From NCBI GenBank assembly GCA_000004695.1, contig CM000151.3, positions 3,456,001 to 3,520,000 of the forward strand: 64,000 nt of DNA. The letters are read 5' to 3'. The notes under the pieces are model-generated. The model was not told the DNA's origin and did no database searches. It saw only the letters and a program-made list of their open reading frames with translations. This document shows positions 169 to 62,625 of this stretch, piece by piece. The stretch's first letter is position 1, and each line of letters opens with the position of its first letter. Both the position numbers and the translations under genes were made by a program. Source of the DNA: Dictyostelium discoideum. Lineage: Eukaryota.

Positions 169-6721
<6,553 letters not shown>

Positions 6722-7610: not shown

Positions 7611-9086
7611 ATGGTTGTACTTTCAAAATATAATGAATTTACAATTATTAATCAATTAAATGATGATAATTCAATATTATTTTTTAAAATTTGGAGAAAT
7701 ATTGTATTAAAAAAAAAGATATGGCAAGATGCAATTTTAATATCAAAATATGATATTCAAAATATTAAAGAAATAAAACAATTAAGAGAACATAAATATA
7801 GAGAATATATTAGAACAATTAAATTTGTTGATCATTTCAATGATTTATTAGAAGAAGGTGATATTCCAAACAATGTTTCAACAATTGATTTTGGTGTAGC
7901 ATTTGATACAAGAATTAGTGCTAGAGTTTTACCAAATTCGCTTACAACCCTTGACTTGGGCATACAATTTAATCAATCCATTGATTGTGGTGTTTTACCA
8001 AAAAATTTAAAAAATATTTATTTTAGTCATTTATTCAATAAACCAATACTAGTAAACTCAATTCCAAATAGTGTTAAATTAATTGATTTTAGAAATTCGC
8101 CATCGTTTAATACTGAAATTAAAATTGGATCATTGCCAAACTCATTAACCTCTTTAAATTTAGGGTATAAGTATAATATTAAATTTAAAGAAGGAGTTTT
8201 ACCAAACTCTTTAAAAAAATTAATAATTTCAGAAAATTACAATTTTCCAATTAAAAAAGGTGATTTACCAAATAGTATAACTAGTTTAACATTGGGAAAT
8301 TATGATCAAAATATTAAATCAGATGAGTTACCAGAAAGTTTAAAAGTTTTAATAATGGGCCCACTACAAACAAAACAAATTGAAATTTCAAATTTGAAAT
8401 ATATTGAAAAATTGACATTATCAGATTACTATGATGTTCAATATAAAGATTTTCCAAAATCTTTAAAAATTTTAAATTTAGCTTATAAATATAATAAACC
8501 AATTTTACCAAATTCTATTGACAATATTACTGAAATTACATTTGGTAGTGAATTTAATCAACCTATTGAATTGAGTACATTCAAGTCAATTAAGAAATTA
8601 GTATTTGGTGCTAGATTTAATCAGGAATTGAAGCCATATACTTTGAATGATGGTATTGAGAGTTTATCATTTGGTTATTTTTATAATAAAAAATTTCAAT
8701 CAAATAGTTTACCATCGACATTAACTTATTTAAAACTTGGTAGAGAATTTAATCAAATAGTTGAGCCTGGTATATTCCCAAACTCAATCAAACATTTAAT
8801 CTATAGTAATTTAAATAAATCACCATTGACCATTGGTATATTACCATCATCACTTGAAACTTTAGAATTTTTATTTTTCAATGCACCAATTGAGCCATTT
8901 TCAATTCCAAATGGTTGTAAAAAGATTATTTTAAGTTCACAATTTCAAAATCATTCAATTTCAAATAATGTTATACCAAATACTTGTACTGAATTAACAA
9001 TTTCTGAATTATATAAAAGAGAATTATTAGATTTAAATTCATTACCAAAAGGTTGTAAATTACTATATGCTTTATTAATTAATTAA
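7611..9086 (+). CDS. FNIP-repeat protein (Dictyostelium FNIP repeat family)
   Basis: Single 491-aa ORF with about 15 tandem ~22-aa repeats of the form LPNSLTxLxxGxxFNQPI, which is the FNIP repeat signature. The ATG sits directly after an A-run. Confidence 0.8.
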   Translation: MVVLSKYNEFTIINQLNDDNSILFFKIWRNIVLKKKIWQDAILISKYDIQNIKEIKQLREHKYREYIRTIKFVDHFNDLLEEGDIPNNVSTIDFGVAFDTRISARVLPNSLTTLDLGIQFNQSIDCGVLPKNLKNIYFSHLFNKPILVNSIPNSVKLIDFRNSPSFNTEIKIGSLPNSLTSLNLGYKYNIKFKEGVLPNSLKKLIISENYNFPIKKGDLPNSITSLTLGNYDQNIKSDELPESLKVLIMGPLQTKQIEISNLKYIEKLTLSDYYDVQYKDFPKSLKILNLAYKYNKPILPNSIDNITEITFGSEFNQPIELSTFKSIKKLVFGARFNQELKPYTLNDGIESLSFGYFYNKKFQSNSLPSTLTYLKLGREFNQIVEPGIFPNSIKHLIYSNLNKSPLTIGILPSSLETLEFLFFNAPIEPFSIPNGCKKIILSSQFQNHSISNNVIPNTCTELTISELYKRELLDLNSLPKGCKLLYALLIN

Positions 9087-9225: not shown

Positions 9226-10020
9226 TTATGCTACACATTTAAAATCACTACAATTAATAAAACACTCACCAACTGGGTCAACTCTTTGCCAACGCACTAA
9301 TAAAATTGCATTTGAGAAACGAGTTGGCATATTTAAATTAAAAATATAAGCAGATGTTGAAGAACATGATGGATCACTAATTGAAACACTTGCAGTATTT
9401 GGGAAACTTTGGAATAATGTTAAATGATCCCATGTTAATGGAGTTGTGGTTGGGTTGAAACCTGGTTTACTAACATAGAATTCCCAGAAATTTGGATTAT
9501 GAGAAGCAGTTGCACAGAATTTATAAGTGAAACTAACATTTACAGCATTTGCAGTTGTTGGAATAATTGTTGGTGTCCATGGTGCAACAATTGACATTCC
9601 ACTTTTATCATTTGATGATGTAGTTGCATATGCTGAACATAATGAATTTGGTACTGCTGCTTTTAAAGCACTTGCTCCTTGAGCATAATTTGGAATTAAA
9701 ACTGAAAATTCATTTGATTGAATAAATTGATATTGTGGATTATTTCCTTTTGCTTTTACAAATTGAAAAGCTGAACGACATGCAGCATCAGTAATACCAG
9801 ATCCATCCTCTGGCCACCAAATATTACCTTTTGGACATCTTATTTTAAAAAAAAAAAAAATTTAATAAATTGATATTTTATTGGAATAAAAAAAAAATGA
9901 AAAAATAAATAATTACTTTTGTTGGCGAGCCATTGGATAAATTGCATACCCATGAGAATTAATTAAAGAAATTGAAATCATTGAAATTAATGATAATAGT
10001 AAAAATTTAGAAATATACAT
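9226..10020 (-). CDS. Secreted AA10-type lytic polysaccharide monooxygenase-like protein (chitin-binding domain 3 like); exons 10020-9917 and 9838-9226
   Basis: Exon 1 encodes a signal peptide, MYISKFLLLSLISMISISLINS, ending at donor AA|GTAATT (9916/9915). The acceptor ataag| lies at 9839/9840. The frame then runs open from 9838 through the track ORF 9226-9597. The predicted mature N-terminus is HGYAIYPMARQQKC, which matches the AA10 His1 motif HGYxxxPxSRxxxC. The later segments SHNPNFWEFYVSKPGF and ILLVRWQRVD align to the AA10 second-His region and C-terminal region. Confidence 0.55.
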
Positions 10021-10918: not shown

Positions 10919-13700
10919 TTATTGTTGTTTTTTATCATGATTATCAACAATTTTAGCAATTGAAAATTGACATAATAAATTTTTAGCAGCATTTGAATGA
11001 GCATAAACTTCACCAGTAAACATTGAAGTTGCATCTTTACCAATACCCATTTTAATGTAAGCTAAACCACCTGGGTGATCATTAACAAAAGATTCGACAT
11101 CTAATACGGTTTTGTTGATTATCATTAACTTTTTATTTTCTTTTTCAACCAAATTATTAAATTCATCGATTGTCATTGATGGTAAATCTTCTTTATTGAT
11201 ACCCCAATAGATTGATTGTTTCTTTGCGTCTAAATGTTTTTGGTGCATTTGAATCATACCTTTTTCAATTTCATTTTTGGAGAAAGTTTTCAAATCATAA
11301 GCCAAGCCTAAATAATACATTGCAGAGATCAACCATTTAGTTGGATCATATTGATAGAATTTATAAGCGTTTCTATAGTCATTTGGGAATTCATGATGGA
11401 AGTTATGATAACCTTCACCAAATGTTAATATAGCAGTCACAACTGAATCCTTTGGAGTATGTTCATCATCGTATGGAGAGTCACCTAAATAATGAGCCAA
11501 TGAATTGACCAAGAATGTGGAATGTTGAACTGTAACGAGACGAAGTACACCAGAGTAGAAATAACCACCAGCCCAATCACCCCAACCTAAACCAGCTACC
11601 AATGTTGGGAAAACGAGACCCATAAAAGTGGCGATTTTAATGTAATGTTTATGTTGCCACATAACCCATGGATCGGCGTTAAGGTCGTCAATGTTTGCTC
11701 TACCGATTTTCTTTGGATCTTGTTTGAACATTAACCAAATGAAATGGGAATGCCAGAAACCCAATGAAGCTGAATATGGATCTTTATCAGTATCGAGATA
11801 ACGATGATGAGCACGATGATCTCTTGACCACCAACGACATGAACCTTCGACAGCACCTGCACCAAATAGCAACAAGATAATACGAACTGGTAAAACTGCA
11901 CTATAAGCCTTATGAGCCCAAAGTCTATGATAACCTGCTGTAATACCCATACCAGTGAAATGATAATAAATAAATGACCAAATAAATGTTTTCAATGAAC
12001 ACTCTACATTAATTAGACCATAGAGACCAATGAATGGAATACCAATTAAAATGATAACATGTAACCAATTGATTGATTTTAAAAATTCTTTAACAGTACG
12101 ACTTGTACGACTATTTGAAACGGCTTCAGCGGTTGCTTCTGCTTTCTTTTCTTGATCTGGTACCAATGGAGCTGAATCAAATGGTGAGAAAATTTCATTT
12201 GAAAAGTTTTCACTACGGATAATTAATTCTTTAAATAATTCAGTTTCAAATGTACATTCATAAATATATTCACCCCAACTCTTTTTAAATGAATTATAAG
12301 CTTTTCTTAGATTATAATGTGGAATTGAAACTGCAATTTGTCTTGGTAATGAAAAATTAATATCTTTAACAATAAATTCAAACCATTGTGGATATGTAAT
12401 ATGTACTAAATATTTTTCAACTTCAGATGATTTCTTATCACCTTTGTTATTGTTATTATTATTATTTGATTTTTCTAATTTTGAAGCAACTTGTAATTCT
12501 TCATAAAATGGAATTGATGGTAATAATGAAGCAGTTGAAAGTAAGAAATGTAAAACTAACCATGGTGCGAACCAATAATTAAGGAATCCACTTACACCTA
12601 CAAATTTAAACATCATTGGGAAGAAAATAAATCCAAAAATGTAAACAATTGCAATTGAAACGATTGCTTTGGTTTTATCTTTTTTATCTGATAAATTTTT
12701 AGTTGAGAAATAATTTTCAGACCAATTAATAATTGATAAAATCCAAAAGAATTTACCAGTTGCCCATTGTCTAATTGGATTTGTACTTTCGGTTGTGGTA
12801 TGTGCATTAATCTTGAATTGTTCACCATTTAAAACAGCTGTCGATTTCTTTTCTGCATTATTCTTTTCTGAAATCTTGTAAGATTGGAATGGATATAACA
12901 ATGGTAACATTACAATTGTTCCAATAATTGAATTAACTAATGGATTCTTTGAAAAAGTTTTATGAATACAATCATTACCAATTACCATTAACTATTAGTG
13001 TGAGAGGTTGTCATATTTTAAAAGATATTAAAAAAAAAAAAAAAATAAAAAATAAAAAAAAAGTTTTGTTGGGTTAGTGATTAGATATTTTGGAAAAAAA
13101 AAAAAAAAGATGCAAATAAAAAAAAAAAATTTTAATTATTTTTAATTATTATTTTTTTTTTTTTTTTGTTTTTGTAAAATGGGTGCTTTTTTTTTTTTGA
13201 TGGTAATCAAAAAAAAAATAAAATAACAATCATTGTGATTGAAAAAAAAAATTTGGTAGTCTGGAACTGTGACGGTTTTTTTTTTTTCCCACTTGAAAAT
13301 TTCAAGTCACTTTCAGAAAAAAAAAAAAAAAAAAAATTTTGTTTAAAAAAAATAAAAAAAAAGTGAAAATGGAAATAATAAAAAATGAATGAATAATAAT
13401 TGTATTACTTACACCAGTAACTGAGGCACCCATTAACATCCAACCAATTGGGGTTAAGTAAGATGGCATGAGAGTAATGAATGTTGCACTTAAACCAATG
13501 AATAAGATTGTTATTAAAAGTGAACATGCTGATTTAAAATTACTTGTTTCAAAAACTTCTTTTGGAAGAGATTGTAAAATTTGATCAATAGTTAATTCTT
13601 TTGGTAATGATTTTGGTTGTTTTCTAATTGGTTTAATATTTCCATACATAACAGATGGATAAACTTTCTCCTTTAAAGGAGCTCCACTTCCTTTACCCAT
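10919..13700 (-). CDS. Tri-domain membrane desaturase: N-terminal FAD2-like domain lacking all three His boxes, then an OLE1-type delta-9 (stearoyl-CoA) desaturase, then a C-terminal cytochrome b5; exons 13700-13413 and 12991-10919; ~786 aa
   Basis: Exon 1 (within ORF 13302-13700) resembles the FAD2 N-terminus and first TM (KQPKSLPKELTIDQIL...WMLMGASVTG), with donor GGT|GTAAGT at 13412. The acceptor ctaatag| at 12992 joins in phase 0 to the 689-aa ORF. The joined sequence VTG|LMVIGNDCIHKTFS aligns without a gap to FAD2 LTGIWVIAHECGHHAFS. The positions of His box 2 (PFQSYKISEKN versus PYFSWKYSHRRHH) and His box 3 (RQIAVSIPHYNL versus HVAHHLFSTMPHYN) are likewise non-His. Downstream, in the same ORF, the classic SCD motifs are all present: HRLWAH, HRAHHR, HNFHHEFP, then a b5 heme motif HPGG. 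Residues ~310-689 align over their full length to yeast OLE1. Confidence 0.6.
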
Positions 13701-59054: not shown

Positions 59055-59468
59055 AAAATAGGAATCGAACTAGCGACATATTCTGTATAATTTTAAAATT
59101 TAGCTTCTCTAGGTTTCGATCCTAGGACCTCGAGGTTATGGGCCTCGCACTCTACCCCTGAGTTAAGAAGCTGTCGATTCAAGCTAACGAATCTTATGAT
59201 TTTTCTGTAATAAAGTTACTCTATAAAATTAATAGATATTAAATATGCATATTACATTACTAATTATAGTTGACACACATTTAAATAATATAATAATAAT
59301 AATAATAATACTGTCAACTCATTATAAATAATATAAATACTAAAGAATAATTTTATAAACAATATTGAATATTATAAATATAAACTAATATTAAATAAAG
59401 ATAACAAAGTATTATTCAATTATATAATTATTAATTATATATTTATAAAGCTAACAAGCTTTATTACA
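59055..59468. repeat. Inverted-duplication arm A (tRNAi-Met plus ~300 bp 5' flank plus ~45 bp 3' flank)
   Basis: Reverse complement matches 62201-62625 with few mismatches. Confidence 0.75.
59101..59172 (-). tRNA. Initiator tRNA-Met (anticodon CAT), copy A
   Basis: Minus strand AGCTTCT-TA-ACTC-AGGGGTA-GAGT-G-CGAGG-CCCATAA-CCTCG-AGGTC-CTAGG-ATCGAAA-CCTAG-AGAAGCT-A. All four stems pair perfectly. A1:T72, A54 and A60 (ATCGAAA in place of TTCGA) are eukaryotic initiator hallmarks. The anticodon stem is GC-rich and the loop carries CAT. Confidence 0.8.
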
Positions 59469-62200: not shown

Positions 62201-62625
62201 TACACAAATGTAATAAAGCTTGTTAGCTTTATAAATATATATAATTAATAATTATATAATTGAATAATACTTTGTTATCTTTATTTAATATTAGTTTATA
62301 TTTAATATTCAATATTGTTTATAAAATTATTCTTTAGTATTTATATTATTTATAATGAGTTGACAGTATTATTATTATTATTATTATTATATTATTTAAA
62401 TGTGTGTCAACTAAAATTAGTAATGTAATATGCATATTTAATATGTATTAATTTTATAGAGTAACTTTATTACAACAAAATCATAAGATTCGTTAGCTTG
62501 AATCGACAGCTTCTTAACTCAGGGGTAGAGTGCGAGGCCCATAACCTCGAGGTCCTAGGATCGAAACCTAGAGAAGCTAAATTTTAAAATTATATAGAAT
62601 ATGTCGCTAGTTCGATTCCTATTTC
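62201..62625. repeat. Inverted-duplication arm B
   Basis: Matches the reverse complement of 59055-59468. It ends in a 15-bp perfect hairpin (62604-62618 / 62635-62649). Confidence 0.75.
62508..62579 (+). tRNA. Initiator tRNA-Met (anticodon CAT), copy B, identical sequence in inverted orientation
   Basis: Exact reverse complement of copy A, sitting inside an inverted duplicated block. Confidence 0.8.

Follow-up and report, generated by a model that had tools for sequence, protein, structure and literature searches.

A putative fusolin-like AA10 lytic polysaccharide monooxygenase encoded by a resident gene of Dictyostelium discoideum

The stretch of Dictyostelium discoideum DNA analyzed here (64 kb of contig CM000151.3, positions 3,456,001 to 3,520,000; hereafter the window, with positions counted from its first letter) carries at 9226-10020 a two-exon, minus-strand gene that very probably (about 85%) encodes a small, single-domain, secreted copper enzyme, a fusolin-like lytic polysaccharide monooxygenase (LPMO) of family AA10 that is resident in the amoebal genome. 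An initial annotation had proposed an AA10 LPMO-like secreted protein from an amoeba at this position, and the call is correct. The gene has already been annotated with the domain and is a known member of a known family. Its spliced product of 238 residues is identical (100% over 100% of the length) to DDB_G0273103 of D. discoideum AX4, which places the gene in the expected host and on an 8.48-Mb contig; the protein is named 'hypothetical protein' by NCBI and 'Chitin-binding type-4 domain-containing protein' by UniProt, and a PF03067 match is precomputed for it.

Gene model, domain and predicted fold

The catalytic domain is recognized over its whole length. Residues 23-234 cover positions 1-183 of the 183 in the PF03067 (LPMO_10) profile with an E-value of 1.1e-35 and 124.4 bits against a cutoff of 23, as expected for the AA10 (CBM33) core proposed initially, and the Pfam search finds no domain other than LPMO_10 in the amoebal protein. 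When the protein is compared with the sequences of the PDB using phmmer, four chains of entomopoxvirus fusolin rank first (E 1e-45 to 9e-41), followed by AsLPMO10B (7okr, E 1e-24) and then by about 20 other AA10s, with CBP21 appearing as a marginal match (E 0.15).

Structure prediction leads to the same family. An AlphaFold2 model of the mature protein, made with 24 homologues, has a predicted local distance difference test score (pLDDT) of 89.5 and a predicted template modeling score (pTM) of 0.88, and a Foldseek search of the PDB with this model returns the fusolins first, with a template modeling (TM) score of 0.90, a root-mean-square deviation of 2.4 Å and 35-38% identity. Hits 1-39 are all AA10 structures, and AA9 and AA11 enzymes appear at E 5e-4 or weaker. 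The predicted fold is the Ig/FnIII-like β-sandwich of the AA10 enzymes, in agreement with the initial proposal.

The interval 9226-10020 is exactly the span from the TAA stop (9226-9228) to the ATG (10018-10020), and all of the peptides quoted in the initial annotation are present in the translation: MYISKFLLLSLISMISISLINS / HGYAIYPMARQQKC (with the intron inside the Lys codon), SHNPNFWEFYVSKPGF, and RWQRVDPVGECFINCSD at the C-terminus. In the unspliced reading frame a TAA stop follows immediately after ...ARQQK, and the intron is therefore required for a full-length product.

Residues 1-22 have the n-h-c layout of a signal peptide in their hydropathy, with a Lys-containing n-region, a hydrophobic core of 15 residues and a c-region Ile-Asn-Ser whose junction with His23 satisfies the -3/-1 rule. 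Across 13 dictyostelid homologues the residue preceding the His is in every case Ser or Gly, and the residue at -3 is Ile, Val or Thr except for a Gly in one model truncated at its N-terminus. The rule would also allow cleavage after Ser18, but that site is not conserved among these homologues. In the phmmer comparison the mature fusolin chains of the crystal structures begin at the residue that pairs with His23. From this rule-based and comparative evidence we infer that cleavage occurs between Ser22 and His23 and exposes His as the predicted first residue of the mature protein; the mature N-terminal His of the initial annotation corresponds to the sole cleavage site that is conserved across the dictyostelids.

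Predicted metal site and comparison with known AA10 systems

Conservation was evaluated in an alignment of 24 sequences (A1) and in a wider set of 129 full-domain relatives taken from an exhaustive HMMER search. His148, Phe228, Glu226, Arg220, Gln219, Trp218, Asp222 and Ala146 are invariant in A1, and His23 is lacking in truncated models alone. The wider set has His at position 23 in 122 of 129 members, His at position 148 in 126 and Phe at position 228 in 126, and the W, Q, R, D, G, E and F residues of the C-terminal strand, all invariant in A1, are each kept in at least 121 of the 129. His148 aligns with the His of 'TARH' in CBP21 and of 'TAIHEP' in fusolin, and Phe228 aligns with fusolin Phe225 and with the axial Phe of CBP21 in 'NAFY'. 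The second-His and C-terminal regions picked out initially do fall in conserved metal-site columns of the family. Glu226 lies two residues ahead of Phe228, like Glu206 of AsLPMO10B, and Trp42 corresponds to the substrate-facing Trp20 of fusolin and Trp46 of AsLPMO10B (PMC9361615).

These features point to a mechanism in which the 22-residue signal peptide would direct the protein to the endoplasmic reticulum and be cut at Ser22/His23. The mature chain would fold as the predicted AA10 β-sandwich with a helical L2 region, probably held by disulfides Cys36-Cys55 and Cys102-Cys231, which are family-wide, by Cys143-Cys193, which is found in the dictyostelids and in fusolin/GP37, and perhaps by Cys227-Cys236, the pairings being suggested by conservation. 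The amine and imidazole of His23 together with His148 would hold one copper in a histidine brace, with Phe228 in the axial position and Glu226, Arg220 and Ala146 in the second shell, an assignment made by column-by-column conservation with solved AA10 structures. By analogy with characterized enzymes, the Cu(I) form would react with H2O2 or O2 and oxidize C1 of a β-1,4 glycosidic bond, nicking chains on the surface of a crystalline polysaccharide.

Fusolin (spindolin; PDB 4ow5, 4x27, 4x29, 4yn1 and 4yn2) is the best match by both sequence and structure. It shares with the amoebal protein the N-terminal HGY...ARQ..C, the His/His/Phe metal site, the L2 Trp and the Cys143/Cys193 pair. Fusolin has in addition a long C-terminal extension that gives rise to domain-swapped dimers and to crystals in vivo, the spindles (PMC5094447). 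The amoebal protein stops at residue 238, four residues past the domain, whereas the fusolin chains have 313-370 residues, and because the extension is absent the amoebal protein should be a soluble, monomeric enzyme. The gene for fusolin belongs to an insect virus, and its product acts on the chitinous gut lining of the host; the amoebal gene, in contrast, is cellular, intron-bearing and developmentally regulated. Baculovirus GP37, or spindle-like protein, falls in one subclade with fusolin and is of similar size (∼240-370 residues), but is likewise viral. The catalytic domain is like that of fusolin in all testable respects, but the protein has no spindle-type extension and its gene is not carried by an insect large DNA virus; it is neither a spindle protein nor a viral gene product.

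The next-best match, AsLPMO10B of Aliivibrio salmonicida (Foldseek E 2e-15, 32% identity), has the Glu-x-Phe active-site strand and the L2 Trp in common with the amoebal protein (PMC9361615). Bacterial AA10s of the GbpA type combine several modules (GbpA_2, CBM5/12 or CBM73, PKD/Ig and sometimes GH18), whereas the amoebal protein is a bare catalytic domain with none of this architecture of AA10 followed by GbpA_2 and chitin-binding modules; they also lack the Cys143/Cys193 pair and its insertion. The comparison with CBP21 (SmAA10A) in the initial annotation holds with a qualification. The N-terminus quoted for CBP21, HGYVESPASRAYQC, is correct (100% match to 2bem_A), and the two proteins do share the HGY start, the T-A-x-H motif around the second His, the axial Phe and the general fold, but the closest relatives are the viral fusolins and GP37 and the GbpA-type enzymes. 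CBP21 is remote (15% identity by Foldseek, with a profile alignment limited to the C-terminal 110 columns), its second-shell Glu comes from a different strand, and the residue of the Glu226 type occupies the position of its Asn185. We rejected CBP21 as the nearest model given its phmmer score (E 0.15) and an hhalign alignment confined to the C-terminal half, with the fusolins and AsLPMO10B far closer.

The active-site strand of the dictyostelids differs from that of their relatives at Cys227 (9262-9264) and Ile229 (9256-9258), reading G-E-C-F-I in place of the G-E-G-F-Y seen in fusolins and in other relatives from viruses and bacteria. Of 16 dictyostelid sequences, 14 have Cys227. Its candidate partner, Cys236, is limited to D. 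discoideum and its two closest relatives, and in most dictyostelid species Cys227 may therefore be a free thiol beside the copper site.

Two dictyostelid homologues resemble pseudo-LPMOs. In CYY_005017 of P. violaceum (P0031; contig L004, 7677-8405) His1 is replaced by Arg and the axial Phe by Glu; in DICPUDRAFT_79382 of D. purpureum (P0048) His1 is replaced by Asn, the second His is lost and the Phe is replaced by Ile. Both retain the fold cysteines and both are, from these replacements, probably non-catalytic. A sequence of the viral clade (P0093) has also lost both histidines.

Substrate and role

Chitin would be the likeliest substrate in vitro, with roughly an even chance by analogy, because every informative relative has a chitin context. 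Cellulose is the main alternative, though we consider it somewhat unlikely, and another substrate, or none, accounts for what is left. AsLPMO10B and fusolin have been described as acting on chitin or targeting chitin matrices (PMC9361615), and the ten nearest multidomain relatives carry GbpA_2 (9/10), CBM5/12 (7/10) or a fused GH18 chitinase (1/10). The one expression record that we located lists DDB_G0273103 as up-regulated at 11 h of filter development in comparison with time points 2-4 h before, at the transition from aggregate to mound (Rosengarten 2015, PMC4403905 Additional file 7, filter_UP, UP_Hr11_gradual, the column being assigned by a count of tab-separated fields). Since this sole record is of up-regulation at about 11 h, it suggests an extracellular role in the multicellular stage and not in feeding, and the processing of bacterial cell walls envisaged by the initial annotation finds no support. 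A text search of the literature for DDB_G0273103 returned nothing, and the gene is not in the supplements of Sillo 2008, Kjellin 2019, Lamrabet 2020, Kin 2018 or Gloeckner 2016.

Several points weigh against an LPMO of the fusolin kind that works on chitin in this organism. We know of no report of chitin in D. discoideum. The expression support is one entry in one differential-expression list, and up-regulation in starving, non-feeding cells fits remodeling of a cellulose matrix at least as well as breakdown of chitin. D. discoideum reportedly possesses chitobiase-like GH18 genes and lacks classical chitinase or chitolectin genes (PMC1945033). On these two grounds, no reported chitin and no classical chitinase, neither an endogenous chitin substrate nor a chitinase partner is evident. 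LPMO activity of fusolin itself had not been demonstrated biochemically as of a 2016 review (PMC5094447). Finally, we attempted to read the substrate from the L2 motif, which is Y/W-EPQSVE in the chitin type and Y/W-NWFGVL in the cellulose type (PMC6771041), and rejected the approach: the region cannot be aligned reliably to that of CBP21, and the similarity of 'QSNE' to 'QSVE' is a lead and nothing firmer.

The crystalline β-1,4 polymer for which D. discoideum is well known is cellulose, made for its slime sheath, stalk and spore coat. A tentative alternative is that the enzyme acts on cellulose and serves to loosen or remodel the cellulose-containing extracellular matrix that the amoeba itself builds (slime sheath, stalk tube, spore coat) as it develops into multicellular forms. 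The timing of up-regulation, around mound formation, would suit such a role, and the Arg/Glu-x-Phe arrangement of the active-site strand occurs in cellulose-active AA10s too, among them ScLPMO10C. The reported lack of classical chitinases in this species (PMC1945033) and the switching of AA10 substrate specificity within clades (PMC6771041) argue in the same direction. The chitin context of all informative relatives argues against it, as do the absence of an appended cellulose-binding module and the polar character (YQFIQSNE) of the stretch where a hydrophobic W-N-W-F-G-V-L-type L2 motif would be expected but is not visible; the lone list entry limits this alternative as well.

It is unlikely that the protein serves instead as an extracellular weapon or digestive aid directed at fungal, nematode or arthropod chitin or, in bacterivory, at bacterial peptidoglycan. 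We know of no LPMO that has been rigorously shown to cleave peptidoglycan, and the up-regulation takes place in starving cells. The gene is also not in the supplementary lists, possibly partial, of three studies of the response to bacteria and of phagocytosis, a weak negative for a gene that appears to lie in the chromosome-2 region duplicated in AX4. The protein is nonetheless small and secreted, its nearest relatives breach matrices or act in virulence, with fusolin/GP37 directed at the peritrophic matrix of insects and AsLPMO10B involved in the infection of fish (PMC9361615, PMC4411684), and the GH18 chitobiases of D. discoideum have been proposed to process N-acetylglucosamine-N-acetylmuramic acid (GlcNAc-MurNAc) (PMC1945033).

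A non-catalytic protein that keeps the LPMO fold for carbohydrate binding or copper handling is very unlikely. All catalytic and second-shell residues are intact and conserved in DDB_G0273103 and its orthologues, which would not be expected of a mere binder. Degeneration does occur within the same clade, as in the two homologues without His1 and the axial Phe, and LPMO-like copper-acquisition proteins (BIM1/X325) exist, with a weak BIM1-like match in one bacterial relative.

Genomic setting and relatives

AA10s are mainly bacterial and viral, and the nearest non-amoebal relatives of the D. discoideum protein are in viruses and gammaproteobacteria, but bacterial or viral contamination and a very recent horizontal arrival are refuted by the features of the locus (Table 1). 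The coding sequence has a G+C content of 31.9% and 11.3% at third codon positions (GC3), within the 10-20% GC3 of its neighbors, and lies between AT-rich, host-typical flanks in a window of 21.7% G+C. The gene has a spliceosomal intron and is set between genes for an FNIP-repeat protein and a delta-9-type desaturase-cytochrome b5 fusion, which, like the Sec7/BIG ArfGEF gene nearby, are ordinary eukaryotic genes. The D. purpureum orthologue, too, immediately follows the desaturase-cytochrome b5 gene on the same strand (contig L002, desaturase at 1-2291), so that microsynteny is conserved, and named homologues from at least six dictyostelid genera make up one clade. Host-like codon usage, the intron and the synteny with D. 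purpureum together show that this is a long-resident cellular gene. The LPMO genes of D. purpureum, H. album and P. violaceum are intronless, which marks the intron as particular to the lineage of D. discoideum. We also looked for paralogues or a cluster of carbohydrate-active enzymes in the 64-kb window and found none, tblastn returning no second LPMO copy.

Table 1. Positions of the LPMO gene, its parts and other features in the window
Feature	Position	Strand	Description
Exon 1	9917..10020	-	ATG, signal peptide, and 12 and 2/3 mature codons (HGYAIYPMARQQ and 2 nt of Lys35)
Signal peptide, residues 1-22	9955..10020	-	MYISK / FLLLSLISMISISLI / NS; predicted cleavage Ser22/His23; hydropathy, -3/-1 rule, fusolin alignment
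His23 codon (CAT)	9952..9954	-	Predicted His1 of mature protein; Pfam profile position 1
Intron	9839..9916	-	Spliceosomal, 78 nt, GT..AG (GTAATT...AAG), 7.7% GC, phase 2 within Lys35 codon
Exon 2	9226..9838	-	Residue 35 (third base) to 238, and TAA stop
LPMO_10 (AA10) catalytic domain, residues 23-234	9241..9954	-	Intron-interrupted; Pfam, AlphaFold, Foldseek
His148 codon (CAT)	9499..9501	-	Predicted second brace His; motif T145-A146-S147-H148
C-terminal active-site strand	9259..9294	-	R217-W218-Q219-R220-V-D222-P-V-G225-E226-C227-F228; predicted axial Phe228, second-sphere Glu226 and Arg220
Sec7/BIG-type ArfGEF gene	493-4965	-	
FNIP-repeat gene	7611-9086	+	7 repeats, E 5e-84
Fatty-acid desaturase gene	10919-12988	-	C-terminal cytochrome b5 domain; immediately upstream of LPMO gene, same strand
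Open reading frame, 1896 residues	15006-20696	-	No Pfam match
Two tRNA-Met (CAT) genes	59101-59172 and 62508-62579	- and +	Opposite orientation, 3.3 kb apart

The exhaustive search returned 259 representative clusters in all at E <= 1e-3. Named homologues come from several species of Dictyostelium and from Polysphondylium, Heterostelium, Tieghemostelium and Acytostelium, often with several paralogues each. In neighbor-joining trees the dictyostelid sequences form one clade (bootstrap 92), and an adjacent clade (bootstrap 60) holds the entomopoxvirus fusolins, baculovirus GP37 and further contigs, with the gammaproteobacterial multidomain LPMOs outside both. The exclusive grouping of dictyostelid and viral sequences is weak by this method (bootstrap 37). 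The Cys143/Cys193 pair and its insertion are present in 16 of 16 dictyostelid and 13 of 13 viral-clade sequences but in just 5 of 100 other full-domain relatives, and the insertion that holds Cys193 is missing in 86 of those 100. This derived character, a sequence trait shared by the two clades, supports the link between dictyostelid proteins and fusolin/GP37 better than the bootstrap does.

The relationship between the amoebal protein and fusolin was published in 2015 and is reproduced here: among cellular relatives, Thézé et al. 2015 placed 'Unicellular eukaryote (Amoebozoa)' nearest to fusolin/gp37. Annotators' labels agree, with 'enhancing factor precursor' in Heterostelium and 'fusolin precursor' in Tieghemostelium. 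Other eukaryotic AA10s, such as UmAA10 of Ustilago maydis and Tma12 of a fern, are rare and thought to be horizontally derived; the fungal AA10s cluster in a bacterial clade (PMC10617569), whereas the dictyostelid clade stands beside fusolin/GP37. The AA10-bearing taxa listed in that work do not include amoebae, and our literature search found no publication on the biochemistry or genetics of a dictyostelid LPMO. No dictyostelid sequence nests within the viral clade, nor the reverse, and the trees therefore favor neither direction for any transfer between amoeba and virus.

We looked for a link to giant viruses of amoebae and found no sign of one. A scan of IMG/VR for the family yielded 55 viral loci with 31-40% identity. 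The contigs are for the most part 100-250 kb long, as are baculovirus and entomopoxvirus genomes, and none of the 55 is marked as amoeba-infecting, the contigs not having been identified individually. Two viral metagenome contigs (L021, IMGVR_UViG_3300036772_000153, 64.9 kb; and L055) stand apart from the other IMG/VR matches, which are chiefly on genomes of 100-170 kb, and carry fusolin/GP37-like LPMOs with 34-35% identity to the amoebal protein. A further contig of 34 kb (L001, Logan SRR18067410_9355), probably from an undescribed large DNA virus, has a fusolin-clade LPMO of 282 residues (P0036) amid dense open reading frames, none with a Pfam match.

Within the dictyostelids, P. violaceum has three LPMO_10 genes, all intronless, arranged in tandem head to tail (contig L004, 5265-8405; 246, 246 and 242 residues), the third of which is degenerate. 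The homologues P0006 (Heterostelium album), P0014 (EukProt) and P0009 (Tieghemostelium lacteum) end in a Ser/Thr-rich linker with a hydrophobic C-terminal tail, resembling a glycosylphosphatidylinositol anchor signal or transmembrane segment, or in a Cys-rich end (…CMCPCACSA). These sequence features suggest LPMOs tethered to the cell surface; the D. discoideum protein has no such tail.

It is improbable, though worth stating, that two things hold jointly: that the dictyostelid AA10s are developmental enzymes acting on the amoeba's own cellulose matrix and that Amoebozoa, not bacteria, were the source from which insect poxviruses and baculoviruses took fusolin/GP37. If true, this would give a self-directed, morphogenetic LPMO in a non-fungal eukaryote. 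The interest of a fusolin-like LPMO in D. discoideum is otherwise modest, and lies mainly in testing LPMO function in a tractable, cellulose-building amoeba and in the direction of transfer between amoeba and virus. An organism that builds cellulose and eats microbes offers an easy knockout and expression system for roles of LPMOs in vivo beyond the decay of biomass. Fusolin and GP37 are virulence factors of insect viruses, and the amoebal protein, their nearest cellular equivalent, bears on the origin of those viral genes.

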